Assembly: GCA_964555735.1 (NCBI GenBank)
Contig: CAZKTS010000114.1
Coordinates: forward strand, 1 to 58,635
Direction: 5' to 3'
DNA length: 58,635 nucleotides
DNA from: an uncultured Bifidobacteriaceae bacterium
GTDB lineage: Bacteria > Actinomycetota > Acidimicrobiia > IMCC26256 > PALSA-555
Positions within the stretch are counted from its first letter, which is position 1. Each line of letters opens with the position of its first letter. The notes under the pieces are model-generated. The model was not told the origin of the DNA and did not search any database. It was given only the letters and a program-made list of their open reading frames with translations. The translations under genes and the position numbers were made by a program. Shown here piece after piece: positions 19,236 to 38,069 of the stretch.

Positions 19236-19316
<81 letters not shown>

Positions 19317-19392: not shown

Positions 19393-19494
19393 GCCAGTTT
19401 CAAACTCCGCTCGGCCGTACTTGTCCGAGAACCCGATGGTGCCAGATCGTGAAAATTGGGAGTGCTTGTCGCACCCTTGCTGTTACATGGACAC

Positions 19495-22400: not shown

Positions 22401-22674
22401 CACGCTCGCAAGTGCCGAACTCGCTCATGGCCGCTTGGATTGGGCGCACGAAGTTGCCAAGCGCGCGGCGGATGAAGGCATCACGGAGACGGGCCTCGCG
22501 ATCCTGAATGAGCTTGTCCGCGGTCAGGTCGACGAATGGGATCGACTGCAGGTCATGCAGACGGCGCTAACAGCTCTCAGCGTCGCCGCTGAGGCCCACC
22601 GCGAGTCCGACGCCTTTGGGCGCCTTCGTACGTCACTGATTGAGCGCGGGTTCTTCGACGCACGCGACGTCTAG
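19495..22674 (+). CDS. large hypothetical protein: N-terminal HEPN-like/pPIWI-associated-nuclease-like domain plus long alpha-helical region
   Basis: ORF 19456-22674 with likely GTG start 19495. N-terminal IAYCTREAL and LNRIVH motifs; no Walker A/B seen. Family call is tentative. Confidence 0.55.
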   Translation: MPDADDGKLFDHLIEEFGHAGRSSVEFLRTAASYLEAADPATHPRVAETIAYCTREALKRILDTVETPPGGTLGSASRSVVAARDRYLIAQGLPGADEAGALDDLLRAIDELEEGRQQEGVHQRRLIAVLVNRTGAVPLSAASNPISEYQELIEHLNRIVHEHGSLDEVQGAFEHAIALIRRLFAPPDVRMAELDALSALAAPTTADADRLLSLVSASSHLDYFFRNAVSPSWLTLLSDSEVLTPPDGQANWPVFRAVEKLGPTHADEVGAWLDHAYDKWGSSATRAWYIARAAIDLGPAGHDVMLRALRDYPTEGSVNFVAAWALEEVDAGDRVVEAVADLALNALNDFSVTGHLKTLIDKLGSGVSADNWRDRVRLLAFKIRAVPEDDPGRRIRLYERAGSIAEPVDAYDDRRFAVLLGGLTEVLTRAVGLGVSFDDLLESIADLPQDVRDRLRPWILGQAPDVSSSRLISEVADFVATRHPCGDDLALIDRVIEDAEEVEYVGPWRTALGPAPTPEMIGPALAEHTVPDEWFARREWSAVLPSPCPSEWAKAGALIAAAYGQATREALEKRFDRVEFSTGRSPFRDEELKGLTPRDAAITIARWRPDPSDWLVSAGELARTLEQLVKENPEAWTESPLDTVSSLRHPTYIGRYFRALSQVDGGLAARADDLIEAVVFCRSHPWQPEVLGRDDFDYDADWRHVDAAGVDLIKKLANSDAGFGDRIEQAWAVALESAADRSTSSSLVSDRDPLETAFNRPCTSALEAVFALMGYEYRSSGTVRVDALALLDTALRLPEWDGAEHRAVIAPRLGFLLHIAPDWVAERQELLFGSSAPDGLGQQTVDLAVKWGRPQPWVLEHTRGQVIDAAARDVENAMSTLLIGMLWDVPGYDVDSIVDQLVSRRSDLLSAAGEALGRLLRHDDVEPKHVERGVEFWRGVVSRNDPDAMSGFGWWAEVKTLDRERWELLTLASAELAHGRLDWAHEVAKRAADEGITETGLAILNELVRGQVDEWDRLQVMQTALTALSVAAEAHRESDAFGRLRTSLIERGFFDARDV

Positions 22675-22710: not shown

Positions 22711-23703
22711 TCACTCGTCGTCTGAGATGTCGTCGTCATCGCCGGCGCCCTCCGGTAGCGGAGGTATTCCGCCCGTGGCAGCTATGGCCGCGCGCAGACG
22801 CGCCTGCGTGTCCTCGAACCACTCTTGGTACTCGAGCCATTCGTCACGATCGTCTACGGATTCGCCGCCGTTCCGCTTGATCCCAACCCGGCAGCCCTTT
22901 CGCGTCGGGAGATCGTCGAAGATCAGTGGCTCCCCAAACGCTTCCTCAATCTCCTTTTGTCGCGCGTCGAGAACCTGCCATCGCGCCAGGTTGACCGCTG
23001 GCTGTGCATGATGGAAGAAGAGCTCCGAGAGAAGGCCTTCCGTTCGAAATGAGACGCCGTACCGCGCCTTCCGCGCACCGGACGGCAGGTACAAGAAGTG
23101 CCTCGGTGGTGCCTTTCGGTTCGTCCACGATTGCTGCTTCACTCGCTCCAACCACTCAGTCCAGAACTCGAGATACATCTCCTCGCGCTCGGACGTCTCA
23201 GCCGTCGCCTTCTTGACGGCCTTGCCCCAATCGTTGGGCTTGACAACGACATCGAGAAGCGGAGCAACGAGTCCAGAAGGGGCGCCTTCGAGCGTGACCG
23301 CCTGCAACTCGACCCCGAAGAAGCGCGTCAGGGCATCGGTCCGCTGATTGAGCCAGTCGAGCGCGGCGCGGTGTTCGTCGCGGAACTGCTCCGCGATCCA
23401 TACGACGGTCGTGGGTTCAGTGCCGCCTGCATAGGTGAGAAGTTGTCCAAGGTGGCGATGATCTGTAGGACCAAACTGATTCTCAACTATCACGATCTCG
23501 TCAGCGGTTACGTCGCGGCCAACGAGATCCAGGCTGAAACCACCCACTTTGTGCTCGGCTGCCTCGAGTTCTAGGTCGATACCAAGTGCGTCGCCCAGCA
23601 CCTCGGCATTGGCGAGCAGCCACGGCGTGAAACTCGATGCCTCCATCGGCCAAACGTCGCGCACGGCGACGGGGAGCAGCCGCGAGAGTTTCGGTGAAGT
23701 CAT
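22711..23703 (-). CDS. DUF4268-domain protein with N-terminal NucS-like endonuclease-fold domain
   Basis: VRDVWPMEASSFTPWL, LDLVG...VIVENQFGPTDHRHLGQLLTYA, C-terminal YLEFWTEW...EIEEAFGEPL...RKGCRV. Confidence 0.8.
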   Translation of the reverse strand: MTSPKLSRLLPVAVRDVWPMEASSFTPWLLANAEVLGDALGIDLELEAAEHKVGGFSLDLVGRDVTADEIVIVENQFGPTDHRHLGQLLTYAGGTEPTTVVWIAEQFRDEHRAALDWLNQRTDALTRFFGVELQAVTLEGAPSGLVAPLLDVVVKPNDWGKAVKKATAETSEREEMYLEFWTEWLERVKQQSWTNRKAPPRHFLYLPSGARKARYGVSFRTEGLLSELFFHHAQPAVNLARWQVLDARQKEIEEAFGEPLIFDDLPTRKGCRVGIKRNGGESVDDRDEWLEYQEWFEDTQARLRAAIAATGGIPPLPEGAGDDDDISDDE

Positions 23704-23761: not shown

Positions 23762-24916
23762 CTATCGCTCGAACACAGCGCGCGAGAACGCTGCGGCCGC
23801 GTCGGCTTGCATGCCGGGCAGCACGTGCTGATAGACGCTCATCGTGAACGCGGGGCTTGAGTGGCCGAGGCGTTCGCTGACGACCTTCACCGGGACGCCG
23901 GCTTGGAGCAGGATCGTCGCGTGGGTGTGGCGAAGATCGTGGAGTCGGATCCTGGGTAGCTCGCTCTTCGCGATGTGGCGTTCGAAGAGCTGGCTGAAGG
24001 AGTCGGGGTGAACCGGCGCCCCGTCGGGCTGCGCGAAGACGAGCGCTGACTCGTCCTCCCGACGGCCGACGAGGAGCTGCTCCTCGAGTTGTCGCTTTCG
24101 CCAGGTCCGGAGCACGGCGACGGTTCGCTCGTCGAGGTCGACGACGCGACGGCTGCTTTGGGTCTTCACGTCAGCGAGCTGGAGTTGGTACGCGATGTTG
24201 ACGAGTGCCTGTCGAACCGAGAGTCGCTGGCCTTCGAGATCAACGTCCTGCCACCGGAGCCCAAGCACTTCGCCGCGTCGCATGCCGGTGTTCGCTGCAA
24301 CGAACAGTGCGGGGTAGAGGCGATGGTCCGACACCTCGTCGAGGAACTGTCGGAGTTGCTCGGCGGTCCACGCCCGCATCTCGGGCTTCCGGGTGGCTGA
24401 CGGCTTCGGTGGGTCGGCGACATCCGCGACATTCCGAACCACGGTGCCCTTACGGTGAGCGTCGGACAGTGCCTTGCGCAGGATGCCGTGGATGTAGCGA
24501 ACTGACTTCGGAGCCAACCCGCCGCCGGCACCGTTGAGACGGCCGTCGCGGAGGAGATCCGCGTAGAAGCCGTCGAGGTCTTCGGCCGTCAGTCGCTGCA
24601 GCGGAATCGAGCCGATGCGCGGCACGACGTGGTTCTTGATGTTGCGCTCGTAAGAGTCGAACGTCGATGGTCGCAGTTGCGCCCGCTTGCTCGGTAGCCA
24701 CCGCTCGGTGAGGTAGTCGCCGAGCGTTGTCCGTTCGGGTGCCCGGTAGTCGCCATCGTGCTGGCGCTTGACCAAGTCTCCAAGGACACGCTCCGCCTCC
24801 TTGCGAGTCCCTCCGCCTGCGTACCAGCGGTGGCGAGGCTTTCGGGTCGCGGGATCGAGTCCCTCGTAGATGACCGCGTAGTACCGCTTGCCCTTCTTGG
24901 CGATGTGTCCGCGCAT
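23762..24916 (-). CDS. int: tyrosine recombinase / integrase
   Basis: TGMRRGEVLGL (R), HDLRHTHAT (H-x2-R), LGHSS (H), VYQHV (Y); N-terminal arm-binding-like segment. Confidence 0.96.
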   Translation of the reverse strand: MRGHIAKKGKRYYAVIYEGLDPATRKPRHRWYAGGGTRKEAERVLGDLVKRQHDGDYRAPERTTLGDYLTERWLPSKRAQLRPSTFDSYERNIKNHVVPRIGSIPLQRLTAEDLDGFYADLLRDGRLNGAGGGLAPKSVRYIHGILRKALSDAHRKGTVVRNVADVADPPKPSATRKPEMRAWTAEQLRQFLDEVSDHRLYPALFVAANTGMRRGEVLGLRWQDVDLEGQRLSVRQALVNIAYQLQLADVKTQSSRRVVDLDERTVAVLRTWRKRQLEEQLLVGRREDESALVFAQPDGAPVHPDSFSQLFERHIAKSELPRIRLHDLRHTHATILLQAGVPVKVVSERLGHSSPAFTMSVYQHVLPGMQADAAAAFSRAVFER

Positions 24917-25631: not shown

Positions 25632-28169
25632 TTGCTGAGTCTCGGGAAGCTCGCGCCGGGCCAGCAGGGCTACTACCTCGACACTGTCGCGCGCGGCGCG
25701 GAGGAGTACTACACGGGTGCGGGGGAGGCGCCGGGTCGATGGGTCGGCGCGGCTGCCGTCCGGCTCGGGCTCGAGGGCGAGGTCGACCCGCAGGCCCTTC
25801 ACTTGGTGCTGGAGCACCGTGACCCGCGAACAGGCGAGCCGCTCACTCGGGCGCAAGGGGCGGCCCGGGTCCCCGGATTTGATGCGACGTTCTGCGCGCC
25901 GAAGTCCGTCTCGCTCCTCTTCGCGATGGGCGATGAGCGTGTCTCACGAGAGGTCCGCGAGGCACACGATCTCGCGGTGGATCGGGCGCTCGGCGTGCTC
26001 GAAGGGGAGGCCGCTCGGGCGCGGCGGGGGAAGGGCGGCGTCGAGCAAGTCGCCGCCGACGGGTTCGTCGCCGCTGCGTTTCGGCATCGCACGTCTCGGG
26101 CCGGCGATCCGCAGCTGCACACCCATGTCGTGGTCGCGAACCTCGTCCACGCACCCGACGATGACCGCTGGTCAGCGCTCGATGCCCGGCCGTTCTACGC
26201 GTGGGCCAAGACCGTCGGCTACCTCTACGAGACCGAGCTGCGCACCGAGCTGACTCGCCGTCTCGGCGTCGCGTGGACCACGACCCGCAATGGGATCGCA
26301 GACGTCGCGGGTGTACCGGCGGAGGCGATCCGGGCGTTCTCGCAACGCCGCCAGGAGATCGAGCTGCACCTCGAACGCGTCGGGGAGAGCACTGCGCACG
26401 CGGCCCAGATCGCCGCCTACGCCACCCGCCGCACCAAGACGACCGAGCCGGAATGGAGCATCACGGAGTGGCACGAACGAGCAGCCCGGGCCGGGCTCGA
26501 CGACCAAGCCATCACGAACGTCCTCGGCATGGGCGCGACGGTCGAGCCACCCACCCCGGGTACTGACGTCGCGGATGCGCTGTTCTCTGCGCTCGCGAGT
26601 CCGGACGGGCTGACATCGAGCCACTCGACGTTCGGTCGCCGCGACGTCATCCGCGCTCTGTCTGAACGGTGCCCGCCCGGCACCACGATCGGTCATGTCG
26701 TCGCGCTGAGCGAAGCGTTCCTCGCCTCGCCGCACGTGATCGCCCTCGGCACCGGCAACGGGCTGACGACATCGGACGTGATCCGACGCAGCGATGGCCG
26801 CATCGTCGCGACCGGAACCGACCAAGCCCGCTGGACGACGCCCGAGCTCCTCGCGATCGAGGCCCGACTGGTCGAGAGCGCAGGCGACCGACGCAACGAC
26901 AACGTCGCGGTCGCGGACCGCGAGCAGACCTCGCGAGCCGTTCGGGCTCGCCCGTCACTCGGTCCCGAACAGGTCCAGCTCGTCCGACGGATCACATCGT
27001 CGGGCGCGGGCGTCGACATCGTCGAAGGCGCCGCCGGAACCGGCAAGACCTATGCGCTCGACGCTGCACGCGACGCTTGGGAAGGCTGCGGCCACCGAGT
27101 CCGCGGCTGCGCGCTCGCGGCTCGTGCTGCGGCCGGACTCGAGCGCGGCTCGGGGATCCCGTCCCAGACGATCCACCGTTTCCTTCGCCAGCTCGACAAC
27201 CCACGTGGCGACGCGCTGCGAGCCGGCGACGTGCTCATCGTCGACGAAGCCGCCATGGTCGGCACTCGGGTGCTCGCCCAACTCCTCGACCACGCGGAAG
27301 CCGCCCGAGCGAAGGTCGTCCTCGTCGGCGACCACCACCAGCTCCCCGCCATCGATGCCGGCGGCGCATTCGCTGGGCTTGCTCAACGACTCGACGCGAC
27401 ACGGCTCTACGACAACCGCCGCCAAGTCGAACCCTGGGAGCGCCGCGCCCTCGCTCGTCTCCGCGTCGGAGCCACCCAACGCGCCATCGCCGCCTACCAA
27501 GAGCACGGCCGAATCAAGGTCTCACCCACGCCCGACCTCGCCCGCGAGCGACTCGTCGAGGACTGGCTCGACGCCCGACGCGCCGGGCACGTCGTCACGA
27601 TGCTGGCCGCACACCGCAGTGACGTCGACGAGCTCAACCGCCTCGCTCGCGAACGACTCCACGCCACTGGATTGCTCCCACCAGACGAAGCCGTCATTGC
27701 CGACCGACCGTTCGCCGTCGGCGACGACGTCATTGCCACCCAGAACGACTACCGCCTCGACGTGCTCAACGGCACCCGCGGCGTCATCACCGCGTGCGAC
27801 TCGCTCCAGCAGGCGATGACGATCCGCACCGACGACGACCGCAGCGTCGATCTCCCCGCTGAGTACGTCGTGGACGGCAACCTCACCCATGCCTACGCGC
27901 TCACCTTGCACAAGGCCCAAGGCATCTCGGTAGGCGAAGCGTTCGTCCTTGGGACTGAGGGCCTCGATCGCGAGCACGCGTACTCCGCTGTCTCCCGAGG
28001 AGCCGACGGCAACTGGCTCTATCTCAGTGAGGAGACCATCCGCGCTGAAGACGGCCACGCGCCCGAGGTCGAACCGGATGCCATCGAGCGCCTGGAGGCC
28101 GGACTTGGGCGGTCCACGGCCGACGGGCTGGCCATCGACTTCGCCGAGAGCATCGGCCTCGAACTCTGA
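25632..28169 (+). CDS. mobF: MobF (TrwC/TraI-like) relaxase-helicase
   Basis: GYY...EEYY catalytic tyrosines, FDATFCAPKSVS, HRTSRAGDPQLHTH (HUH), GAAGTGKT Walker A, IVDEAAM, LVGDHHQL, HAYALTLHKAQG; TTG start. Confidence 0.95.
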   Translation: MLSLGKLAPGQQGYYLDTVARGAEEYYTGAGEAPGRWVGAAAVRLGLEGEVDPQALHLVLEHRDPRTGEPLTRAQGAARVPGFDATFCAPKSVSLLFAMGDERVSREVREAHDLAVDRALGVLEGEAARARRGKGGVEQVAADGFVAAAFRHRTSRAGDPQLHTHVVVANLVHAPDDDRWSALDARPFYAWAKTVGYLYETELRTELTRRLGVAWTTTRNGIADVAGVPAEAIRAFSQRRQEIELHLERVGESTAHAAQIAAYATRRTKTTEPEWSITEWHERAARAGLDDQAITNVLGMGATVEPPTPGTDVADALFSALASPDGLTSSHSTFGRRDVIRALSERCPPGTTIGHVVALSEAFLASPHVIALGTGNGLTTSDVIRRSDGRIVATGTDQARWTTPELLAIEARLVESAGDRRNDNVAVADREQTSRAVRARPSLGPEQVQLVRRITSSGAGVDIVEGAAGTGKTYALDAARDAWEGCGHRVRGCALAARAAAGLERGSGIPSQTIHRFLRQLDNPRGDALRAGDVLIVDEAAMVGTRVLAQLLDHAEAARAKVVLVGDHHQLPAIDAGGAFAGLAQRLDATRLYDNRRQVEPWERRALARLRVGATQRAIAAYQEHGRIKVSPTPDLARERLVEDWLDARRAGHVVTMLAAHRSDVDELNRLARERLHATGLLPPDEAVIADRPFAVGDDVIATQNDYRLDVLNGTRGVITACDSLQQAMTIRTDDDRSVDLPAEYVVDGNLTHAYALTLHKAQGISVGEAFVLGTEGLDREHAYSAVSRGADGNWLYLSEETIRAEDGHAPEVEPDAIERLEAGLGRSTADGLAIDFAESIGLEL

Positions 28170-28202
28170 ACACCAGACGGTGCAGCGAGCCGAGCCGCTC
28201 TG

Positions 28203-28248
28203 GTCACAGTCATTGTGACTTGACATCACAGACGTTGTGGTTCATAGT
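28203..28248 (+). promoter_or_regulatory. sigma70-type promoter with twin palindromic operators
   Basis: TTGACA (28220-28225), 17 bp, CATAGT (28243-28248); palindromes GTCACA-GTCAT-TGTGAC (28203-28219) and ATCACA-GACGT-TGTGGT (28225-28241). Confidence 0.7.
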
Positions 28249-28254
28249 CAAGCC

Positions 28255-28734
28255 ATGCGAACGCACTTTCCTCACCGATCGATTCACCTGGTGGACATCG
28301 AGAACCTGCTGGGCGACGCCCGCCCGGGTTCAGACGCAGCTGCTGCCTGCCGAGCGCAGTATGAAGACGTCGTGGGCCGAGGGGAGGCAGACCTTGTGGT
28401 CGTAGCGTGCAACCACGGTGCAGCCGTCGATGTCGGACTCACCTGGTCCAGTGCCAGGTTGGCCGTTCGATCGGGGCCGAGCGGCGCGGATCTCGCGCTG
28501 CTCGAAGTGATCGAGCGCGAGCAGATCGAGTCTCGGTTCGACCGAGTGGTGATCGCCTCCGGTGACGGCATCTTCGCCGACGCGGCAGCGGATCTAGCCG
28601 GCCAAGGTTTGCCAGTGACGGTTGTGTCCCGACGCGCTTCTCTCTCCCGGCGCCTGCGCCTCGCGGCAACGGACGTGACGTACTTTCCTGTGCCGGGACC
28701 GCCGGATTGCGGTGTCTTCGAGGCGGTCGCGTGA
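28255..28734 (+). CDS. NYN-domain (PIN-like) predicted ribonuclease
   Basis: HLVDIENL, GADLALL, VIASGDGIF, GLPVTVVS, LSRRLRLAA; start ATG 28255 (GTG 28237 also in frame). Confidence 0.8.
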   Translation: MRTHFPHRSIHLVDIENLLGDARPGSDAAAACRAQYEDVVGRGEADLVVVACNHGAAVDVGLTWSSARLAVRSGPSGADLALLEVIEREQIESRFDRVVIASGDGIFADAAADLAGQGLPVTVVSRRASLSRRLRLAATDVTYFPVPGPPDCGVFEAVA

Positions 28735-30305
28735 GTGCATTGCCGAGCACTGAGGGAACGCTCGTTGGAATTCCCGAGATCGCTTCGATCGCCGGCGTTC
28801 AACGGTCGGCGGTCAGCAACTGGCGGAAGCGTCATCCCGACTTTCCGCACCCAGCCGTCGAGACTCCGTCGGGTCTGCTCTTCGATCTCGGCCTCGTGGA
28901 GCTGTGGCTATTCGAGCACGGGAAGGTGACGACGCCGATCTCGGCGACGTCGATCCTTTGGAGGTTCATCAACGCGACGCAGTCTGAACCGGGACCGCTC
29001 CGAGACTTCTTGATCTCTGCACTGGTCTACCTCGAGGCGTGTGACCGTGCGCAAAGCGGCGGTGTGATCCGCGTCGCGGACGCGGACCGCTGGTCGAGCA
29101 TCGACTCCCTGCCCGAAGCCGAGCTCGGTGCCCGATTGCGGATGGTGCTTGCGAGGATCGAGGAGGAGAACGAGCAACTCCGTGGTCTCCTGCTCCATGG
29201 TGTTGCCTCGCCGGGTGCGCCACCGATGGAACGACAGCTCGAACTCCTCGGCCATCTTGACTTCGTCTCGCGTGACTCAGAGACCCCGCGGTTCGAGTTG
29301 TTCGAGGAAGTCGTTGCGCGAACGCACCAGAGAGCGCGCTTCACCGAAGAACATGCAACCCCAGATGGCCTCGCCCTTCTCCTCGCCAAGCTCGCTGGTG
29401 AGGCCGAGCGCGTGTTTGATCCCGCGTGCGGGGAGGGCGGAGTTCTCCTCATGACTGCAGTCGCGTCGGACCTACCGGGACAGAGCACGCGGGAGCTGAT
29501 CGGGTGGGAGGTCGATGCAGATGCGCTTCGACTCGCTCGCGCACGCTTCTTCCTGTACGGCATCGACGCAGAGCTTTCCCTGAGGGACAGCCTCACGGCG
29601 GCGCCGAACGAGCTGCCCTCGGCCGACGCTGTTCTCCTCGACCCTCCATACGGCGTTCGCCAGTGGGGAAACCCTGATATCTATCGAGACACCACCAGGT
29701 GGCCGTTCGGCACGCCTCCACCAAACTCTGCCAACCTCGCTTGGTTGCAGCTCGCCGCTGCTTCGTTGAAGCGTGGAGGCATGGCCTTCGTGCTCCTCCC
29801 CGCAAGCGAACTCGCAAGAGGCGGACGCGAACAAGGCATTCGTCAGTCGATGCTCGAAAGCGGTGCAGTCGACGCCGTCGTTGTTCTCCCCGCCCGACTC
29901 CGACGGGACACATCGATCCCACTATCGCTCTGGTGCATGCGACCCCCGAAGAGTGGCGGGACCGATGGCTCGATTCTGCTCGTCGATGCGTCACAGATAG
30001 GTCGTTCGAGCCGGTCGACCGTCTCGTTAGAGGAGGAGGACGTCGAACTCCTTGCACAGACGCTTGGCAAGTGGTTCGACGACCGCGCGATCGATACTGC
30101 AGACACGACGATTACCGCAGTCGTGGTCACCATTGCTGACGTCGAGGAGGCGCGGCTTGTCCCAGCGCACTACGTCCCAAAGCCGCAGGTTGATCGTCGT
30201 CAGCTGTCGCGCGAACGCGAGGTGCTGGTCGAGGAGCTCCGCGACGGTGCATCGGTACTCGCATCGGTCCTTCGCGCGGTCATCAAGGGATCACCGGGCG
30301 AATGA
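28731..30305 (+). CDS. HsdM-like N6-adenine methyltransferase with N-terminal AlpA/Xis-type HTH
   Basis: N-terminal LVGIPEIASIAGVQRSAVSNWRKRHPDFP; VFDPACGEGG (motif I); LLDPPYG (motif IV); LAWLQ...LKRGGMAFVLLP; GTGA overlap with NYN. Confidence 0.85.
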   Translation: MSALPSTEGTLVGIPEIASIAGVQRSAVSNWRKRHPDFPHPAVETPSGLLFDLGLVELWLFEHGKVTTPISATSILWRFINATQSEPGPLRDFLISALVYLEACDRAQSGGVIRVADADRWSSIDSLPEAELGARLRMVLARIEEENEQLRGLLLHGVASPGAPPMERQLELLGHLDFVSRDSETPRFELFEEVVARTHQRARFTEEHATPDGLALLLAKLAGEAERVFDPACGEGGVLLMTAVASDLPGQSTRELIGWEVDADALRLARARFFLYGIDAELSLRDSLTAAPNELPSADAVLLDPPYGVRQWGNPDIYRDTTRWPFGTPPPNSANLAWLQLAAASLKRGGMAFVLLPASELARGGREQGIRQSMLESGAVDAVVVLPARLRRDTSIPLSLWCMRPPKSGGTDGSILLVDASQIGRSSRSTVSLEEEDVELLAQTLGKWFDDRAIDTADTTITAVVVTIADVEEARLVPAHYVPKPQVDRRQLSREREVLVEELRDGASVLASVLRAVIKGSPGE

Positions 30306-30892
30306 GCGAGCACTCCGTCCGCCTCTCCGAGGTTGCCGACGTCCTGCGCGGAACCGTTCCAGCAACCACGACGCCAGAGCCGACGGGCCCAAAGTTCTTC
30401 GGGCTCGCAGAACTCAGTGATCGCAGCCTCACCCAGGTGCGCTACCTCGACCCTGACATCGAGTTAGGTCGCGCGGTCTACCTGCAGACTGGTGACATCG
30501 CGGTCGCGCTACTCGGTCGACTCGGCGAGTCTGCTCTGGTCAGGGATGAGCGTGCCGGTTCTGTCCTGGGTCGTGAGTGTGCGGTGATCAGACTCCGGCC
30601 GCACGAGGAGGCGATCACGCCGCCTTGGCTCTACGCGTGGACTAGATCGAGCGCCTTCGACCATGTCGTCGCAACGAGCACCTCGGGTACGACGATGCCG
30701 CGTCTCTCGATTCGCGGCCTACGTGAGTGTTCAGTTCCGCTCACGGAACTCGACACGCAGCAACGGCTGGCGGACAGGCTGGGCAAGTTCGAAGATGCAC
30801 TTGAGCTGACTCAACACGTCACGATGAAGCTCGAGAGATTGCGCCAGATTGAGATCGACCTGACCTTCGATGCAACCGATTCGAAGGGGTAA
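30302..30892 (+). CDS. half-size HsdS-like specificity subunit (single TRD)
   Basis: VRLSEVADVLRG, LQTGDI, GTTMPRLS, SVPLTELDTQQRLA plus one coiled-coil; 196 aa; ATGA overlap. Confidence 0.8.
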   Translation: MSEHSVRLSEVADVLRGTVPATTTPEPTGPKFFGLAELSDRSLTQVRYLDPDIELGRAVYLQTGDIAVALLGRLGESALVRDERAGSVLGRECAVIRLRPHEEAITPPWLYAWTRSSAFDHVVATSTSGTTMPRLSIRGLRECSVPLTELDTQQRLADRLGKFEDALELTQHVTMKLERLRQIEIDLTFDATDSKG

Positions 30893-31002
30893 CGCAGTGC
30901 TCGCGTCGCCTGCCGCCCCCATTGCGGTTGACTCGATGACTATCACGCGCTTGCCCGGATGGGTGCCGGACGTCCCACCCACTGCATAACGTGGGGACCA
31001 GC

Positions 31003-33822
31003 ATGACGGGCAGGGGCGACTCGGACTATCTGCAACCCGAGCAGAAGGCGCGCCAGCGAATCGACGAGATGCTCGTCGCTGCTGGCTGGGAGGTCCAGGA
31101 CTACAAGGCCGTCAACCTCCACGCCGCGACCGGTGTCGCCGTCCGGGAGCTCGTGACCGACGCCGGCCCCGCCGACTACATGCTGTTCGTGAACCGACAG
31201 GCTATCGGTGTGATCGAGGCGAAGCCGCAGGGCACGCCGCTGTCGGGCGTCGAGCCTCAGACGCTGAAGTATCAAGCCAACGTCCCGGATGCACTCCCGG
31301 CGTACCGGATCGATGGTTGCTTGCCCTTCGGATACGAATCGACGGGCGACGAGACGTGGTTCACCTGTCGCATGGATCCTGAGCCAACCGCGCGCAGGGT
31401 GTTCTGGTTCCATCGACCCGAGACGCTCGAATGGCAGCTCGAGGACCATGCGAATCACGGCGGCGGGACGCTGCGCGCTCGCATCCCCGACATGCCGGAG
31501 CTGGAGCCCGATCCGGCGCGGTTGCGTGATGCTCAGTTCGATGCGATCACCAACCTCGAGCGATCGCTGAAGGACAACCACCCCCGCGCGCTGATCCAGA
31601 TGGCCACAGGGTCGGGCAAGACATTCGCGGCTGCGAACATCTGCGAGCGGCTGATCCAGCACGCCCAGGCTAAGCGAATCTTGTTCCTGGTCGACCGGGC
31701 CAACCTGGGCAAGCAGGCCCTCAGGGAGTTCCAGGGCTTCGACGTGCCCGGCTCGGCCCACAAGTTCACAGAGCTCTACAACGTCCAGCACCTCACCCAC
31801 AACAAGGTCGACCCAGTCGCGAGTGTGTGCATCGGGACGATCCAGCGCGTGTATTCGATGCTGCGCGGCGACGCCGAACTGCCGGAGGAGATCGACGAGG
31901 AGTCGGGCTACGAAATGGCGCCCGAGCGACCCGTCGAGGTCGACTACAGCAGCGCGCTGCCCATCGAGATGTTCGACGTGATCATCATCGACGAGTGCCA
32001 CCGCTCGATCTACGGCGTGTGGCGCCAGGTGCTCGAGTACTTCGACGCGTCCCTCATTGGGCTGACCGCCACACCCGGCAAGCAGACGTTCGGGTTCTTC
32101 AACAAGAACCTCGTGATGGAGTACGGCTTCCCCGCGGCGGTCGCCGACGGCGTGAACGTCGACTTCGACGTTTTTCGGCTCTCTACCGCGATCAGCGAGG
32201 GTGGCTCCACGATCGAGGCCGGCTATTGGACGACCTTCCGGGATCGCGAGACCCGCGGGGAACGGCTCGAGCTGGTCGACGAGGACCTCACCTACGACGA
32301 GCGCGAGCTCGACAAGAGAGTGGTTGCAAAGGACCAGATCCGCACCGTCATCCGGTCCCTGCGCGACAACCTGCCAGCGATGTTCCCGGACCGCGAGATC
32401 GACGAACACGGCCGGCTCCGTCACATCCCCAAGACCCTCATCTTCGCCAAGGACGACAGCCACGCAGAGGACATCGTGCGCATCGCCCGCGAGGAGCTCG
32501 CCAAGGGCAACGATGTCATCGCCAAGATCACCTACAAGGTATCCGACGGCGCCAAGCCCGAGCAGCTCCTGCAGGACTTCCGCACGACCTACTACCCGCG
32601 CATCGCCGTGACCGTCGACATGATCGCCACTGGCACCGACGTGAAGCCCATCGAAATGGTGGTCTTCATGCGGATGGTTCGCTCCCGCAACTTCTTCGAG
32701 CAGATGAAGGGCCGCGGGGTGCGGACTATCCCTGACACCGACCTCCAGGTCGTCACTCCAGACGCCACCCACAAGGACCGGTTCGTGCTCGTTGACGCGG
32801 TCGGCGTCACCGAGACCAAGCTCATCGAGTCGATGCCGTTGGAACGCAAGCGCGGCGTGCCGCTCCAGAAGCTGCTCCACCAGGTGGCGCTCGGCCAGGT
32901 AAGCGAAGACCTCGTGTCGACGCTCGCCTCGCGAATCGCCCGCATCCAAGGCCGGATCGCTCCGGCCGACCGCGAGAGGCTCCAGGCACTTGCCGGCCAG
33001 TCGCTCGAGTCGATCGAACACGGACTGATCGAGGCGATTGACCCCGACCGCCAGCTCGCCGCCGCTCAAGCTGCGAGCGGCAACCCCGACCCGACCGAGG
33101 AAGAGCGCGCAACAGCCAAGGCGACGATGCTCGATCAGGCCGTGCTCCCGTTCGCCGCCAACCCTGAGCTTCGTGAGCAGCTCGTGAACGTGCAGCGCAC
33201 GTTCGACCAGGTGATCGACGAGATCAGCATCGACCACGTCACCCGCGCTGAGTTCGCGGTTGACGCCCGCGCTCGCGCGGCGGAGACCGTCGAATCGTTC
33301 AAGGCGTACCTCGATGAGCACAAGGACGAGATCACCGCCCTCCAGGTGCTCTACAGCCGCCCCTACGCGAAGCGGCTCACTTATCGCGACGTGAAGGAGC
33401 TGGCCGAAGCGATCGGGCGGCCACCCCACCGTTGGACTCCCGCGCGCCTCTGGGAGGCCTACGAGACACTCGACGCCTCGAAGGTCCGCGGTGCGGCCGG
33501 AACCGTGCTGACCAACGTCGTGTCGCTGGTGCGCTTTGCGCTCGGCGATGACGATGAACTCGCGCCGTTCCCTGAACTGGTCGAGGAGCGCTTCGAAGCT
33601 TGGCTGCTCCAGCAACAGTCTGCCGGGCGAAACTTCACTGCGGATCAGCTCGACTGGCTCCGCCTCATCCGCGACCACCTCGCCGCCAGCCTCTCGATCG
33701 AGTCGCGTGAGCTGCTCGATCCTCCCTTCAGCCAGCATGGCGGCCTTGGTCGCGCGCGCGAGCTCTTCGGTCACGAACTCGACGGCCTCCTGGTCGAGCT
33801 CGGTGAGGCTGTCGCGGCGTGA
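31003..33822 (+). CDS. hsdR: type I restriction endonuclease subunit R (EcoKI/EcoAI-like)
   Basis: ADYMLF...VIEAK nuclease, MATGSGKT, IIDECHRS, LTATP, TGTDV, QMKGRG; EcoEI-R-like C-terminus. Confidence 0.95.
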   Translation: MTGRGDSDYLQPEQKARQRIDEMLVAAGWEVQDYKAVNLHAATGVAVRELVTDAGPADYMLFVNRQAIGVIEAKPQGTPLSGVEPQTLKYQANVPDALPAYRIDGCLPFGYESTGDETWFTCRMDPEPTARRVFWFHRPETLEWQLEDHANHGGGTLRARIPDMPELEPDPARLRDAQFDAITNLERSLKDNHPRALIQMATGSGKTFAAANICERLIQHAQAKRILFLVDRANLGKQALREFQGFDVPGSAHKFTELYNVQHLTHNKVDPVASVCIGTIQRVYSMLRGDAELPEEIDEESGYEMAPERPVEVDYSSALPIEMFDVIIIDECHRSIYGVWRQVLEYFDASLIGLTATPGKQTFGFFNKNLVMEYGFPAAVADGVNVDFDVFRLSTAISEGGSTIEAGYWTTFRDRETRGERLELVDEDLTYDERELDKRVVAKDQIRTVIRSLRDNLPAMFPDREIDEHGRLRHIPKTLIFAKDDSHAEDIVRIAREELAKGNDVIAKITYKVSDGAKPEQLLQDFRTTYYPRIAVTVDMIATGTDVKPIEMVVFMRMVRSRNFFEQMKGRGVRTIPDTDLQVVTPDATHKDRFVLVDAVGVTETKLIESMPLERKRGVPLQKLLHQVALGQVSEDLVSTLASRIARIQGRIAPADRERLQALAGQSLESIEHGLIEAIDPDRQLAAAQAASGNPDPTEEERATAKATMLDQAVLPFAANPELREQLVNVQRTFDQVIDEISIDHVTRAEFAVDARARAAETVESFKAYLDEHKDEITALQVLYSRPYAKRLTYRDVKELAEAIGRPPHRWTPARLWEAYETLDASKVRGAAGTVLTNVVSLVRFALGDDDELAPFPELVEERFEAWLLQQQSAGRNFTADQLDWLRLIRDHLAASLSIESRELLDPPFSQHGGLGRARELFGHELDGLLVELGEAVAA

Positions 33823-35153
33823 CACTTCGAGCGGATCCGGCGGAGATCGTCGCAGCATCGACATCGCCCCAACTCGCGGCCGCGCCCTGGTGGGTCAGGG
33901 TTCGCCTCGGTGACATCGCCGAAGTGATCAACGGTGCGGCCTTCAAGTCATCGAGGTTCAACGACGAGGGCCGTGGCGAGCCACTCGTGCGGATTAGGGA
34001 CGTGGGAAAGAACAGCGTTCAAGCTCACTATGACGGTCCGTATGAGGAGCGACATCTCGTCAACCACGGAGATCTGCTCGTCGGAATGGATGGCGACTTT
34101 CGCGTCGCCACCTGGGAGGGGCCTCGCGCACTGCTTAACCAGAGAGTGTGTCGTATTCAGATCCGTGAGCCGGACTACTACAGCGATCGCTTCCTGCTAC
34201 ACGTGCTCCAGCCCTACTTAAACGCAATCCAGGCTGCGACGTCATCCATCACGGTGAAGCACCTGTCATCACGCACGATTCAGGATCTACCTGTTCCTCT
34301 TCCTCCGCGTGCAGAACAGTCGCGGGTCGCCGCCGCAATTGAGGAGCACATCTCCCGCCTCGACGGTGCCGTAGCCGCCACAGCGTCGGCGCGGCGAAGG
34401 CTCGCTGGCTTCTACGACTCGGTATTGCAGGCGACGTTCGATCCAGCCTGGCCGCGGGATCCGCTGGACTCGCTCAACGATCGCGAGCGGCCGATCTGCT
34501 ACGGCATCCTCAAGCCGAAGACCCCGGAGCCAGGCACAGTGCCCTACGTCGAGGTCAGGAGCATTGCCAACGGCCAGATCAACGTGAGTGAGCTCCATAA
34601 GACGACGATGGCTCTTCACCACGAATTTCGGCGGTCCGAGTTGCGGGCAGGGGACGTGACCCTTGCCATCCGAGGTTCGTTCGACAGAGCAGCGGTCGTT
34701 CCAGACGAGCTCGGGGGAGCGAATGTCAGCAGGGACGTCGCGCGCATCGCGCCGACTCACTATCTGCTTCCCGAGTTCCTGGCAGCATTCTTGGTGAGTC
34801 CCGAGGCGCGGCGGTTCTTCCGAACGCATGCGCGTGGGGTCGCCGTCCAAGGCATCAACATCGGCGACTTGCGGCGGCTGCCGGTCCCGAAGCCCAACGC
34901 CGATGTTCAACAAGCAGCCGTCCGGAGGATTGCAGCGGCACGATCGGCGATCGACCACATTGAGGGCGAGGTCCGAATCGGCGATGTGCGCAGCCATCAA
35001 CTACGCCGCTCAATCCACGCGGCGGCGTTTGCAGGCCAGCTCGTGCCGCAGAATTCTGATGATGAGCCAGCTTCGGCGCTACTCGAACGTATCCGGGCCG
35101 AGCGAGCATCGGCACCCCCCGCGAAGCGCAGGCAGAAGGCGACGACATCGTGA
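33819..35153 (+). CDS. hsdS: type I specificity subunit S (two TRDs)
   Basis: WVRVRLGDIA...VPLPPRAEQSRV, second TRD ...GINIGDL...PVPKP; C-terminal AFAGQLVPQ...EPASALLERIRAE. Confidence 0.93.
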   Translation: MTLRADPAEIVAASTSPQLAAAPWWVRVRLGDIAEVINGAAFKSSRFNDEGRGEPLVRIRDVGKNSVQAHYDGPYEERHLVNHGDLLVGMDGDFRVATWEGPRALLNQRVCRIQIREPDYYSDRFLLHVLQPYLNAIQAATSSITVKHLSSRTIQDLPVPLPPRAEQSRVAAAIEEHISRLDGAVAATASARRRLAGFYDSVLQATFDPAWPRDPLDSLNDRERPICYGILKPKTPEPGTVPYVEVRSIANGQINVSELHKTTMALHHEFRRSELRAGDVTLAIRGSFDRAAVVPDELGGANVSRDVARIAPTHYLLPEFLAAFLVSPEARRFFRTHARGVAVQGINIGDLRRLPVPKPNADVQQAAVRRIAAARSAIDHIEGEVRIGDVRSHQLRRSIHAAAFAGQLVPQNSDDEPASALLERIRAERASAPPAKRRQKATTS

Positions 35154-36631
35154 GCGAAGCCAAGGTGATCGTCGACAAGCTTTGGAACTACTGCCACATC
35201 TTGCGCGACGACGGATTGTCGTATGGCGACTACCTGGAGCAGCTCACGTATCTGCTGTTCCTGAAGATGGCTGAAGAACAGCATCAGTTCGGCTTCGAGC
35301 GGATCGTGCCCGAGGGTTACGACTGGCCCTCGCTGCTCGACTTGAAAGGCGAGACGCTGGAGGCGCACTACATCACGATCCTCAACGAGTTGGGCAAGGG
35401 CGACGACATGTTGGGTGTCGTCTTCCGCAAGGCGCAGAACCGGATCCAGGACCCAGCCAAACTCGAACGGCTCATCAAGGATCTCATCGGCAACGAGGAG
35501 TGGATGAGCCTCGACGCCGACGTGAAGGGCGACGCGTATGAAGGGCTGCTCGAGAAGAACGCGGCCGACACCAAGTCGGGGGCGGGCCAGTACTTCACCC
35601 CGCGCGCGTTGATCGCCGCGATGGTCGATGTCATGCGGCCGGGGCCGGACATGCAGATCTGTGATCCGGCGTGCGGCACCGGTGGCTTCTTCCTCGCCGC
35701 GTTCGATTACATCCTCCGCAACCATCCCAACCTCGACCCCGACCAGAAGCGCCACGTCCGCTCGGGGTTGTTCACCGGCTGGGAGATCGTCGACAACACG
35801 GCGAGGTTGTGCGCCATGAACCTGTTGCTGCACGGGATCGAGAGTCCCGAGTCCGACAGCCCAGTTCACGTCGACGACGCGTTGCGGGCCGACCCGGGCG
35901 AGCGGTTCGACATAGTGCTAACTAACCCGCCGTTTGGGAAGAAGTCGTCAGTGACGATCGTCAATGGCGAGGGCAAGGCCGAGAAGCAGAGTCTCACCGT
36001 TGTTCGGGACGACTTCTGGGCGTCGACGTCGAATAAGCAACTCAACTTCGTGCAACACGTCAAGACGCTCTTGAAGGTGGAGGGCACCGCAGCAGTGGTC
36101 GTGCTCGACAACGTCCTGTTCGAGGGCGGAGCCGGCGAGACGATTCGTCGCCGGCTGCTCCACGAGTGCGACGTCCACACGTTGCTCCGCCTGCCGACTG
36201 GGATCTTCTACGCCCAAGGCGTCAAGGCCAACGTGTTGTTCTTCGACCGCAAGCCTGGCTCCGACACGCCCTGGACCGAAGAGCTGTGGATCTACGACCT
36301 ACGCACGAATATGCATTTCACGCTCAAGACCAAGACCCTCACTCGGGCCGACCTCGACGACTTCGTCGAGTGCTACCAGCCTGGAAAGCGCTCCAAGCGC
36401 GAGGAGAGCGACCGGTTCCACCGCTTCGCTTACGACGATCTGATTGCTCGCGACAAGGCCAGCCTCGACATCTTCTGGCTGCGCGACGAAAGTCTGGAGG
36501 ACACCGACAACCTGCCGTCACCCGGCGTAATCGCCGCGGAGATCGTTGAAGATCTCGACGCAGCGCTAACCGAATTCACCGCGCTAGCCGAGTCGCTACA
36601 GGGGATCGGCGAAGAGGTCGATTCGGCATGA
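35150..36631 (+). CDS. hsdM: type I methyltransferase subunit M
   Basis: KLWNYCHILRDDG, GAGQYFTPR, CDPACGTGGF, LTNPPFG. Confidence 0.96.
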   Translation: MSEAKVIVDKLWNYCHILRDDGLSYGDYLEQLTYLLFLKMAEEQHQFGFERIVPEGYDWPSLLDLKGETLEAHYITILNELGKGDDMLGVVFRKAQNRIQDPAKLERLIKDLIGNEEWMSLDADVKGDAYEGLLEKNAADTKSGAGQYFTPRALIAAMVDVMRPGPDMQICDPACGTGGFFLAAFDYILRNHPNLDPDQKRHVRSGLFTGWEIVDNTARLCAMNLLLHGIESPESDSPVHVDDALRADPGERFDIVLTNPPFGKKSSVTIVNGEGKAEKQSLTVVRDDFWASTSNKQLNFVQHVKTLLKVEGTAAVVVLDNVLFEGGAGETIRRRLLHECDVHTLLRLPTGIFYAQGVKANVLFFDRKPGSDTPWTEELWIYDLRTNMHFTLKTKTLTRADLDDFVECYQPGKRSKREESDRFHRFAYDDLIARDKASLDIFWLRDESLEDTDNLPSPGVIAAEIVEDLDAALTEFTALAESLQGIGEEVDSA

Positions 36632-36704
36632 GCAGAACCAAGCTGTTCAGCAGCGCCGGCGGGGTAGCCGAGCTGGCGGTCGCCGATCCCTGGGATTGCT
36701 CGTC

Positions 36705-37268
36705 GTGAGCCACGGCCCGCCATCCCAGGTGTGCCCGCTGTGTGCGGACGACGACCAGCTGAGTGCGCTCCCGGGGGAGCCGGGCACCTGGATGTTTACC
36801 TGCACTGGTACTCGTGGTCACGAGACTCCGTACTCATGGCCAGTCAAGGTCGAGTCCACGGTTGAGGGCCGAGAAGGAATCACCGAAGAGCTCGGCGTCT
36901 ATGACGATCTTCTTCTGTGCGTGCACTCGGACGAACCGTGGGTCGAGCATGGTGTCGTCGAGCATCGCTACAAGTTGTTGAAGCCGGCCGTCTACTTCAA
37001 GGAGCTGCTTCCGACGTACGGCCATGTCGCTCAAGGCCCGAAGCAGTACACGCTGTCGGCGTTCCTGGCTCGGGCGCTCGGACAGCTACGTGACGAAGGA
37101 GCACTCGCGTGGCAGTACGCGACCGCGACCGGGTTCTGGGCCTACAACGGGTCGATCTCCTACTGGGCGATCCCGCCCGCCCCGCCTGCTGACGAGCGCG
37201 CTACCTGGGAACAATTCGCGTTGGACGCAGGCCTCGATCCGAAGTCATGGAATCTCGACCCGCCGTGA
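36705..37268 (+). CDS. hypothetical protein with N-terminal Zn-ribbon-like motif
   Basis: CPLC...C-x4-H at the N-terminus; ORF 36696-37268, start uncertain; coupled to the next gene. Confidence 0.65.
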   Translation: MSHGPPSQVCPLCADDDQLSALPGEPGTWMFTCTGTRGHETPYSWPVKVESTVEGREGITEELGVYDDLLLCVHSDEPWVEHGVVEHRYKLLKPAVYFKELLPTYGHVAQGPKQYTLSAFLARALGQLRDEGALAWQYATATGFWAYNGSISYWAIPPAPPADERATWEQFALDAGLDPKSWNLDPP

Positions 37269-38014: not shown

Positions 38015-38032
38015 TGCCGCTTGGTCGGCCCA

Positions 38033-38069
38033 TTGAGTTTGCGTATCACGCAAGGTATATTGCGTGATA
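38033..38069 (+). promoter_or_regulatory. leaderless sigma70-type promoter with perfect operator palindrome
   Basis: TTGAGT (38033-38038), 17 bp, TATATT (38056-38061); TATCACGCAA-N6-TTGCGTGATA (38044-38069) ends on the A of ATG 38069. Confidence 0.75.

Follow-up and report, generated by a model that had tools for sequence, protein, structure and literature searches.

The window, by which we mean the entire 58,635-nucleotide stretch of DNA that was analyzed, contains a 20.8-kb mobilizable island integrated in a tRNA-Met gene and bounded by two copies of a 51-nt perfect direct repeat, of which attL (positions 19266 to 19316) coincides with the 3' part of the tRNA-Met (19236 to 19312) and forms the left end, while attR (40070 to 40120) forms the right end. 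Over this region (19 to 40 kb), the GC content falls from about 72% to 63 to 66%. The island encodes a tyrosine integrase on the minus strand (23762 to 24916; Pfam Phage_integrase, 4e-28) and a TrwC/MobF-type relaxase-helicase on the plus strand (25632 to 28169; Pfam TrwC, 3e-83, and AAA_30). A MNT/HEPN pair is also carried on this integrative element. A megablast search with positions 28100 to 31100 recovered no match in plasmids.

Downstream of the relaxase and on the same plus strand lie three genes that we refer to as the trio: ORF1 (28255 to 28734; 159 aa), encoding a protein with a NYN/LabA-like fold; M1 (28731 to 30305; 524 aa), encoding an HsdM-like protein with an HTH; and S1 (30302 to 30892; 196 aa), encoding an HsdS-like protein with one TRD. 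Successive genes overlap, ORF1 and M1 by GTGA (28731 to 28734) and M1 and S1 by ATGA (30302 to 30305). A complete canonical type I system (31003 to 36631), again on the plus strand, begins 110 nt after S1 and comprises an intact hsdR (31003 to 33822; ResIII, Helicase_C, and EcoEI_R_C domains), an hsdS with two TRDs (33819 to 35153; 444 aa) that overlaps the hsdR stop codon, and an hsdM (35150 to 36631; 493 aa; HsdM_N and N6_Mtase domains) that overlaps the hsdS stop codon. The interval from S1 to hsdR contains no predicted terminator, and the statement of the sequence-only reading that the operon lacks an endonuclease gene is not confirmed in that form, given an intact hsdR at this distance. 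The order of relaxase followed by the trio recurs in related loci L008, L009, L010, L017, L099, and L100.

ORF1 is preceded by a promoter of the form TTGACA-17 nt-CATAGT (plus strand; −35 hexamer, 28220 to 28225; −10 hexamer, 28243 to 28248), the sole sigma-70-like site in the region from 27900 to 37400. Two palindromes on the plus strand overlap it: O1 (TCAC-N7-GTGA; TCACAGTCATTGTGA; 28204 to 28218), which starts 35 nt after the relaxase stop codon and abuts the −35 hexamer, and O2 (TCAC-N7-GTGG; TCACAGACGTTGTGG; 28226 to 28240), which lies between the −35 and −10 hexamers and 22 bp from O1. The −35 hexamer is thus placed between the inner half-sites GTGA and TCAC, and the four half-sites have an 11-bp spacing. 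Because the −10 hexamer sits only 6 nt ahead of the ORF1 ATG, the mRNA is probably leaderless; the same −10, N6, ATG spacing is found again in relatives.

O1 and O2 are the only two matches to the palindrome (with at most one mismatch) across the 58.6-kb window. Two such palindromes were reached by 23 of 100 shuffles, so that their number alone is not significant; the decisive point, which makes them more than a chance occurrence, is their conservation in relatives. The array TCAC-N7-GTGA, −35, TCAC-N7-GTGR, with O1 among the parts retained, is kept across these, while the spacers vary freely (information content close to 2 bits in the half-sites and about 0 bits in the N7 spacers), and TTGACR is invariant among 20 aligned loci. 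At least one operator is present within 90 nt upstream of the NYN gene in 17 of 26 loci of the M1 type, compared with 6 of the 71 other NYN loci, and the 22-bp operator pair is present in 11 of the 26 versus none of the 71. No further copy was detected between S1 and the type I genes in seven loci, and the operator variants show too little variation for their covariation with HTH or TRD residues to be of use. On this comparative evidence, the twin palindromes are a conserved operator, the binding of which is predicted.

The product of ORF1 scores above the cut-off for the Pfam NYN family over its C-terminal part only (PF01936; 25.2 bits; cut-off, 24.2), and a search of PDB sequences with the NYN-family profile gave a marginal match (2qip; E = 0.16). 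Its AF2 model (pLDDT, 92.7) best matches VPA0982 and the MARF1 NYN domain in Foldseek (TM, 0.59 to 0.69; E values of about 1e-5 for 2qip and the MARF1 NYN) and has the PIN-like fold of that family. It is this comparison of a modeled fold, alone among the searches, that makes the NYN assignment convincing. Five positions are conserved (D14, E16, N17, D79, and D104); among NYN homologs, D14 and D104 never vary, and D79 is kept in at least 90%. The three aspartates are spaced by 65 and 25 residues, comparable to 68 and 26 residues for D358/D426/D452 of MARF1, and the second Asp of the SGDxD motif, the fourth acidic residue that is canonical in LabA-type NYN domains, is absent. The NYN domains known so far are RNases.

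M1 combines a winged HTH (residues 10 to 62), an HsdM_N-like helical domain (72 to 201), an N6-adenine MTase fold (212 to 470), and a C-terminal helix (489 to 519), and the copy in the window retains motif I as DPACGEGG and motif IV as DPPY. These domains emerge jointly from Pfam (N6_Mtase), from homologs, and from the AF2 model (pLDDT, 90.7), whose top Foldseek matches are PacII M1M2S and the HsdM subunits of Methanosarcina mazei, S. thermophilus, EcoR124I, and EcoKI (TM, 0.6 to 0.73). M1 thus has the full HsdM fold, with a helical N-terminal domain, a gamma-class MTase, and a C-terminal helix, and resembles the HsdM subunits that have been solved with Ocr or ArdA. Pfam detects HsdM_N in 5 and HTH_17 in 6 of 36 M1 homologs. 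The N-terminal HTH proposed by the sequence-only reading is supported by these homologs and by the model; Pfam applied to the first 200 aa of the window copy gives it no significant HTH, just HTH_23 at E = 0.05. The corresponding motif, AV.NWRKRH.DFP.P, is largely invariant, with A27, V28, W31, K33, R34, F38, and P39 never varying. S1 has a single Methylase_S domain in its 196 aa and lacks the two TRDs, varying between systems, that are expected of a type I specificity subunit; its TRD is colinear across 14 loci at 34 to 54% identity, with no TRD swapping. PADLOC returned generic type I M/S matches, together with a weak match of the HTH to PDC-M06B (E = 0.003), and no named system. Several other elements of the sequence-only reading, namely the promoter, the two palindromes over it, the NYN product of the first gene, the single-TRD S subunit, and the translational coupling of the three genes, were borne out by the above analyses, the last by the two overlaps together with the conservation of the genes as a unit.

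In about half of the M1 homologs, motif IV has become DPPL or DPPM. These copies keep motif I, the HTH, perfect twin operators, the NYN gene, and synteny. Since the operators are kept, the TRD is fixed, and DPPY is lost in half of the family, M1-S1 looks like an exapted DNA-binding complex; judged from these sequence patterns, it resembles a DNA-binding sensor more than a working methylase.

We encountered dozens of M1-type loci, and in every one examined, including four found via M1 alone, NYN, HTH-M1, and S1 occur together, in keeping with the co-conservation that the sequence-only reading had anticipated. Of 16 distinct related loci, 15 have a full type I system immediately downstream of the trio. 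The type I genes follow the trio on the same strand in L001/L011, L002, L004, L005/L014, L006, L007, L009, L010, L017, L018, L095, L097, L099, and L100, and likewise in the window; in L001, all six genes overlap in one operon. The adjacent hsdR comes with its own hsdS and hsdM, and these partners belong to at least two families (with HsdR proteins of the EcoEI_R_C versus the T1R_D3-like/EcoR124_C type) and occur in two gene orders (R-S-M in the window and M-S-R elsewhere). Across loci, M1 is 40 to 55% identical, whereas HsdM of the window is only about 31% identical to that of the relatives. As the families and orders of the partners differ while M1 stays constant, what is kept is adjacency to any type I system. 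In L101, a transposase takes the place of the RM system beside the trio, and a solitary HTH-M-S fusion from Streptomyces (L098; 33% identity) has neither NYN, a type I system, nor an upstream TCAC-N7-GTGA. In L004, NYN is intact while M1, hsdM, and hsdR are fragmented; we do not count this against toxicity of NYN because the many fragmented genes resemble assembly frameshift errors.

Within the trio, NYN is the best-conserved product (50 to 67% identity versus 40 to 55% for M1 and 34 to 54% for S1), and the NYN family, with >700 members, extends well beyond it. In 71 of 93 NYN loci, there is no methylase of any kind, the NYN proteins being about 50% identical. ORF clustering, with a codon-position GC filter against spurious high-GC ORFs, placed many of these in housekeeping neighborhoods with a different upstream repeat, and one such NYN gene overlaps a T4SS coupling-protein gene. 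A role for NYN as a type II restriction nuclease was considered on account of L094, where NYN is convergent to a C5 methylase, and was discarded, given that most homologs have no methylase nearby and that NYN shows stronger conservation than M1 and S1. Because homologs occur without M1-S1 in 71 of the 93 loci, NYN is not intrinsically a methylase-restrained toxin, and the earlier suggestion that its toxicity is held in check by M/S is not implied for the whole family. With a full type I system adjoining the trio in the window and at 15 of the 16 related loci, the proposal that NYN replaces the restriction nuclease also fails, and we reject the trio as a stand-alone RM system with NYN in place of HsdR.

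Several characterized systems share parts of this arrangement. Ronin is a ronA-hsdS-hsdM decoy of Escherichia coli ECOR55 without hsdR, linked to RM or BREX, in which MTase activity is dispensable by experiment, an upstream noncoding region is needed, Ocr or ArdA triggers cell death, and HsdMS suppresses an effector that is toxic by itself (Silas et al., bioRxiv 10.1101/2023.04.06.535777). In the trio, likewise, an effector gene is tightly linked to hsdM/hsdS-like genes with no dedicated hsdR, beside a real RM system and behind an important upstream noncoding region; methylation appears dispensable here as well, to judge from the DPPL variants. Ronin thereby provides a published precedent for the earlier proposal that a nuclease is coupled to a methylase-like complex. 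Unlike Ronin, the trio has a soluble 159-aa NYN-fold protein rather than the 61-aa membrane peptide RonA as its effector, an N-terminal HTH on M1, a one-TRD S1, a defined twin operator, and hosts among the high-GC Actinomycetota/Acidimicrobiia. Nothing points to homology of NYN with ronA, and the two are set apart by description. PrrC is an RNase encoded in a type I hsd locus, probably kept latent by RM proteins and released when a phage factor inhibits restriction. The trio resembles PrrC/EcoprrI (type IC) in having the gene of a putative RNase inside or beside a type I hsd locus, its product presumably restrained by RM proteins; however, PrrC, an anticodon nuclease of the ABC-ATPase type, binds the genuine EcoprrI enzyme, whereas NYN has a dedicated HsdM/HsdS-like pair.

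M.AhdI is an M2S2 complex whose promoter is downregulated by methylation of an overlapping site. The trio shares with it the one-TRD S subunit, the expectation of a symmetric N-spaced site, and a candidate site, TCAC-N7-GTGA, over its own promoter. Unlike the trio, AhdI has a type II endonuclease and a C protein, neither of which is present at the trio locus, and an active methylase whose M subunit lacks an HTH; in the M1 family, to go by the alignments, the catalytic motif is lost in about half. In SsoII-type systems, an HTH is fused to the N terminus of the C5 methylases of type II systems. A dedicated HTH repressor, RptR, is genetically linked to type I systems (PMC12255303). In C proteins, SsoII-type methylases, and RptR alike, an HTH reads repeats or palindromes over an RM promoter and autoregulates it, and the HTH-bearing M1 with the operator over its own promoter is predicted to bind in this manner. 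Unlike M1, RptR and the C proteins are small and stand-alone, and none of the three is accompanied by an S subunit and a nuclease. HEC-09 consists of an HTH and a MARF1-like NYN, is embedded in Hma systems, and gave no defense in tests (bioRxiv 10.1101/2024.01.29.577857). Compared by description, it shares with the trio the NYN fold, the three MARF1-type aspartates, and a location inside a methylation-based defense locus; unlike the trio, it is one polypeptide carrying both HTH and NYN and belongs to a different host system. By analogy, its lack of defense would count against reading NYN as the effector of a guard.

We consider it most likely that the trio guards or controls the adjoining restriction system rather than replacing its nuclease. 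Our preferred reading, to which we give a probability of roughly 0.4, is that, in the manner of Ronin or PrrC, it forms an autoregulated guard of type I restriction whose effector is the NYN nuclease. M1 and S1 would form an M2S2-type complex, exapted from methylation to DNA binding, as we infer from the fixed TRD and from the loss of the catalytic Tyr in about half of the family. This complex would occupy the four half-sites through its HTHs, its TRDs, or both, thereby repressing the operon, and would probably also restrain the cotranslated NYN nuclease. Ocr/ArdA-like mimics block type I enzymes by filling the DNA groove of the M and S subunits. They would occupy M1-S1 as well as the type I enzymes, so that repression would be lifted, NYN freed, or both, and RNA cleavage by the freed NYN would halt either the infected cell or the invader. 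The logic would be that of Ronin and PrrC/EcoprrI, here with NYN as the effector and the operator built in. Against this reading, NYN homologs exist without M1-S1, the fourth acidic residue canonical in LabA-type domains is missing, derepression alone leaves the ratio of NYN to M1-S1 unchanged if the genes are cotranscribed, and, to our knowledge, anti-restriction DNA mimics are undocumented in phages of such Acidimicrobiia-like hosts; that the search of viral contigs turned up no NYN relatives is neutral. A more specific version, which we offer tentatively, takes M1-S1 as a type I methylase turned sensor-repressor, proposed to hold the operators via the same DNA groove that DNA mimics of phages or plasmids attack, so that an inhibitor would derepress the operon, raise the level of the restriction enzyme, and unleash the NYN RNase.

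The position of the operators over the −35 hexamer and the spacer to the −10 hexamer, a typical repressor geometry, also lends itself to a simpler account, namely that HTH-M1-S1 is purely a transcriptional controller, autorepressing a six-gene type I operon in the part played elsewhere by C proteins, RptR, or the HTH of M.SsoII, with NYN as an accessory RNase. Expression would burst when the island arrives in a new cell and settle to a low steady state later, and NYN would be no killer, instead trimming the polycistronic mRNA and, for instance, delaying HsdR. The single promoter-like site in 27900 to 37400, the absence of a predicted S1-hsdR terminator, and the six overlapping genes of L001 are in accord with this, as are the mobilizable islands with an adjoining relaxase, where timing after transfer matters, the example of RptR as a dedicated repressor of type I islands, and the NYN homologs outside RM, which argue against an obligatory toxin role. 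Yet a small HTH protein would suffice for repression, and this account leaves the retained HsdM fold, the S subunit with its conserved TRD, the SAM-binding motif I, and the coupled nuclease unexplained; moreover, no operator was found between S1 and the type I genes in the seven loci, and L101 keeps the trio with a transposase instead of RM. We regard it as doubtful.

The twin palindromic operator, translational coupling, and HTH on the presumed neutralizer equally recall the classical toxin-antitoxin layout, and the element also has the MNT/HEPN pair; NYN could then be a stable RNase toxin and HTH-M1-S1 its neutralizing autorepressor, such that loss of the island kills the cell regardless of phage or anti-restriction proteins. 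We think such an addiction module unlikely: it leaves the near-obligatory adjacency to type I RM systems of varied families (15 of 16 loci) unexplained, NYN homologs exist without an M1-S1 partner, and we know of no precedent for a 720-aa two-protein antitoxin with the HsdM/HsdS fold.

Least probable is the view favored by the sequence-only reading, an independent system of the AhdI kind in which two M1 and two S1 subunits methylate a TCAC-N7-GTGA-like site and repress their own promoter through it, with NYN as the nuclease or M1-S1 as an orphan methylase: the one-TRD S1 with a palindromic bipartite operator, predicted methylatable adenines 10 bp apart as in type I geometry, the DPPY and motif I of the window copy, and the M.AhdI precedent of an M2S2 complex with a methylation-controlled promoter speak for it, but the DPPL/DPPM variants retain operators, NYN, and synteny, the TRD is without diversification, the known NYN domains are RNases, and NYN is conserved better than M1 and S1 and recurs at about 50% identity with no methylase nearby, where a sequence-specific restriction nuclease could not survive. 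The palindromes are accordingly retained from that reading as an operator, conserved in relatives, and not as a methylation target of general significance, since the DPPL/DPPM half of the family keeps perfect twin operators.

Type I restriction is among the commonest bacterial defenses, and many phages and plasmids disarm it by means of DNA mimics. The few backup systems known to us that punish anti-restriction (PrrC, PARIS, Ronin, and some retrons) are all from Proteobacteria, and we found no published description of a NYN-M1-S1 module in the literature. The trio is a conserved, uncharacterized companion of type I systems in high-GC Actinomycetota that unites a defined operator with a small putative nuclease and a methylase scaffold in the course of losing its catalytic activity, a combination of parts that makes the idea of a decoy or guard directly testable by simple reporters and expression assays. 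If M1-S1 controls only transcription, the trio would explain how mobile islands time dangerous type I expression after transfer. If the sensor-repressor version is true, it would represent an anti-anti-restriction decoy wired at the level of transcription, without precedent in Actinomycetota and the first to combine an RNase effector with a defined operator. More generally, if the trio is a guard, it would show a route from methylase to sensor and regulator.

The trio under study consists of ORF1 (28255 to 28734, + strand), an NYN-fold protein; M1 (28731 to 30305, +), an HTH-fused HsdM-like protein with an N6-adenine methylase domain; and S1 (30302 to 30892, +), an HsdS-like protein. GTGA and ATGA stop/start overlaps join the three genes behind a TTGACA-N17-CATAGT promoter read from the sequence (28220 to 28248, +), which is overlapped by the palindromes TCACAGTCATTGTGA (28204 to 28218) and TCACAGACGTTGTGG (28226 to 28240). 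Our inspection of the sequence from 27800 to 31300 and an ORF listing bore out this anatomy, first described in a sequence-only reading, including the single TRD of the 196-aa S1. That reading was correct for the most part but mistaken in its main negative claim, the absence of an endonuclease gene from the operon. The immediate neighbor of the trio is a complete canonical type I system, in which an intact hsdR (31003 to 33822; ResIII, Helicase_C, and EcoEI_R_C), starting 110 nt past S1 with no predicted terminator between, is followed in an overlapping series by hsdS (33819 to 35153; two TRDs) and hsdM (35150 to 36631; HsdM_N and N6_Mtase).

Related loci were retrieved in two ways, via ORF1 and via M1, and genes with ≥40% identity to M1 were treated as M1 type. 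The proposed co-conservation of the three genes held throughout: every M1-type gene has ORF1 just upstream, with a 4-nt overlap, and S1 either downstream or fused to it (the fusions being in L010, L017, L097, and L101). Four loci found via M1 alone all possess ORF1, including where gene callers had missed it. Of 16 distinct loci with sufficient sequence, 15 have a full type I system after the trio on the same strand; at the remaining one, L101, a transposase precedes the end of the contig. At L001, all six genes overlap as one operon. The partner HsdR is of either the EcoEI_R_C or the T1R_D3-like/EcoR124_C type, the gene order is R-S-M in the window and M-S-R elsewhere, and the window HsdM is ~31% identical to those of the relatives, versus 40 to 55% for M1. 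This variability indicates that the conserved trait is adjacency to some type I system and not co-evolution with one enzyme. Further defense genes are embedded in or appended to some of these systems: at L099 (11266 to 19229), an Mrr gene separates hsdM from hsdS and a Shedu-like SduA_C gene follows hsdR, and L100 (17501 to 19243) has an AAA_15/AAA_21 ATPase.

Our literature search found no published description of the NYN, HTH-M1, and S1 module. The closest precedent is Ronin, an effector gene with hsdS and hsdM that lacks hsdR and is linked to restriction-modification (RM) or BREX; its methylase activity is dispensable, its upstream noncoding region is essential, and Ocr/ArdA is the trigger. 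The authors of that study view the system as decoy immunity and liken it to PrrC/EcoprrI (Silas et al., bioRxiv 10.1101/2023.04.06.535777). The best-supported reading of the trio, to which we assign a probability of roughly 40%, is a Ronin/PrrC-like guard that accompanies type I restriction and regulates its own expression. In such a guard, M1 and S1 would form an exapted complex that binds the operators, acting as both a DNA-binding decoy and a repressor, and an active NYN protein would be the effector, responding to a trigger.

The promoter region is itself conserved. Allowing ≤1 mismatch, TCACA-N5-TGTGA has only two matches in the whole window, the two palindromes, which lie 22 bp apart. 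A gap of 6 nt separates the -10 hexamer from the ORF1 ATG at 28255, so the mRNA is probably leaderless; the same layout of -10, N6, and ATG recurs in relatives. An alignment of 20 loci anchored on the -35 element gave the consensus tcaC-N6-TGTGAC-TTGACa-TCACA-N6-gtG, which contains two TCAC-N7-GTGA palindromes offset by 22 bp, their four half-sites recurring every 11 bp. Information content nears 2 bits at the half-site columns and is ~0 bits in the spacers, whose free variation shows selection on the half-sites. Of 26 M1-type loci, 17 have one or more operators (≤1 mismatch) in the 90 nt preceding ORF1, versus 6 of 71 other NYN loci, and the exact 22-bp pair is present in 11/26 versus 0/71 (Fisher P of ~1e-7, for loci that are related and not independent trials). 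With half-sites one helical turn apart and potential target adenines 10 bp apart, the geometry fits both the HTH and the TRD pair; both are conserved, and both are candidate readers of TCAC-N7-GTGA. Upstream of the operator, L097 (7400 to 7500) and L101 (about 8380 to 8500) have two or three ~45-nt direct repeats (GCGCGCGGATTCTCGGTGGAAYTCCCCC..GTGAT), each ending in a GTGA half-site, which may be extra binding sites. The trio promoter is the sole sigma-70-like site within 27900 to 37400, and RptR shows that a type I island can have an HTH repressor of its own (PMC12255303). The trio might then be purely a controller of the six-gene operon, with no guard function, which we regard as possible but rather unlikely.

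ORF1 belongs to a family of >700 proteins and barely passes the Pfam NYN cutoff (25.2 versus 24.2 bits, C-terminal part only). Its confident AlphaFold model (pLDDT of 92.7) best matches the LabA-like protein VPA0982 and the MARF1 NYN domain in the PDB (TM of 0.59 to 0.69). An alignment of 31 homologs shows no variation at D14, E16, N17, D46, C52, H54, or D104 and almost none at D79; D14, D79, and D104 are spaced by 65 and 25 residues, versus 68 and 26 for the three MARF1 active-site aspartates, and the LabA-type SGDxD motif lacks its second Asp. HEC-09, which is a MARF1-like NYN protein found within Hma systems, gave no defense when tested (bioRxiv 10.1101/2024.01.29.577857). M1 is absent from 71 of the 93 loci retrieved via ORF1 (mostly ~50% identity), many of which share a housekeeping neighborhood (acyl-CoA dehydrogenase; a two-component system of histidine kinase and LuxR regulator). 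This second NYN clade (L019 to L093; e.g., L022, 3816 to 4517, L027, and L036; ~50% identity) has no methylase and pairs with a divergently transcribed, uncharacterized ~290-aa protein, which occurs in 49 loci; the common upstream region is rich in CCATGG/GCATGG repeats instead of the operator. One homolog is convergent to a C5 methylase, and another (L096, 4319 to 6591) shares 10 nt with the end of a TraG/TrwB-like gene for a T4SS coupling protein; at L096, two uncharacterized genes follow, with an Eco57I-like methylase 3.4 kb downstream. NYN is also better conserved than M1 and S1, which, together with these M1-less contexts, rules out a sequence-specific restriction nuclease.

The trio is part of a 20.8-kb island whose GC content is below that of its surroundings and whose two ends are marked by perfect 51-nt direct repeats of the tRNA-Met 3' end (attL/attR, 19266 to 19316 and 40070 to 40120; tRNA-Met region from 19236). 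The island encodes a tyrosine integrase (23762 to 24916, -) and a TrwC relaxase (25632 to 28169, +) ending 35 nt ahead of the operators, but no T4SS genes, and it is an integrative mobilizable element loaded with defense genes; TrwC precedes the module in seven loci. A 1,072-aa protein lacking Pfam or PADLOC matches (19456 to 22674, +) and the adjoining DUF4268 protein (22711 to 23703, -; PADLOC candidate PDC-S11, E = 8e-97) may be further defense cargo. Directly after hsdM (36696 to 38014 and 38021 to 39141) come an uncharacterized 190-aa ORF, a DUF7662 protein, and then an overlapping MNT (Polbeta and HTH)/HEPN pair that looks like a toxin-antitoxin-like or defense module. Just outside the island, a GCC/GCCGCC-rich imperfect tandem repeat with 9-nt periodicity (41197 to 41464) probably lies inside a Gly/Ala-rich coding region. 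That the trio is an addiction module of this mobile island is improbable; the M1-less contexts weaken the view of NYN as intrinsically a toxin needing M1-S1.

In the confident M1 model (pLDDT of 90.7), a winged HTH (residues 10 to 62), anticipated by the sequence-only reading, precedes a helical domain resembling HsdM_N, the catalytic domain, and a helix at the C terminus; the top structural matches are type I HsdM subunits and PacII M1M2S. Pfam does not detect the HTH in the window M1 but finds HTH_17 in 6 of 36 homologs. The motif AV.NWRKRH.DFP.P is largely invariant. M.SsoII is a precedent for an HTH-fused autoregulatory methylase. Streptomyces and Micromonospora have many solitary 640- to 740-aa proteins with ~31 to 38% identity to M1 (P0199 to P0223). 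The one such locus examined (L098, 8001 to 10025, Streptomyces, P0206) encodes an HTH-HsdM-HsdS fusion, its HTH 49% identical to that of M1, with neither NYN nor a type I system and a GmrSD_C gene nearby.

Genuine type I systems exchange and diversify their TRDs, but the TRD of S1 stays colinear at every locus (34 to 54% identity) and evolves like the other parts of the module. At motif IV, the window M1 and about half of the homologs have DPPY/F/W, and the other half have DPPL or DPPM. A (D/N)PP(Y/F) methylase that has lost its aromatic residue is expected to be severely impaired in adenine methylation. The equivalent F287G mutation was used to inactivate HsdM in the Ronin study (bioRxiv 10.1101/2023.04.06.535777). 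DPPL/DPPM copies (L064, L095) retain motif I, the HTH, ORF1, the type I neighbor, and perfect twin operators, suggesting that methylation cannot in general be how the operators act, contrary to the idea of the palindromes as methylase targets. TRD fixity and motif IV decay argue against a working RM methylase. An AhdI-like RM system or orphan methylase is the least probable reading; M.AhdI offers the precedent for a one-TRD S subunit. Because the TRD is fixed and the aromatic residue is lost in about half of the homologs, we infer that the conserved role of M1-S1 is binding, not methylating.
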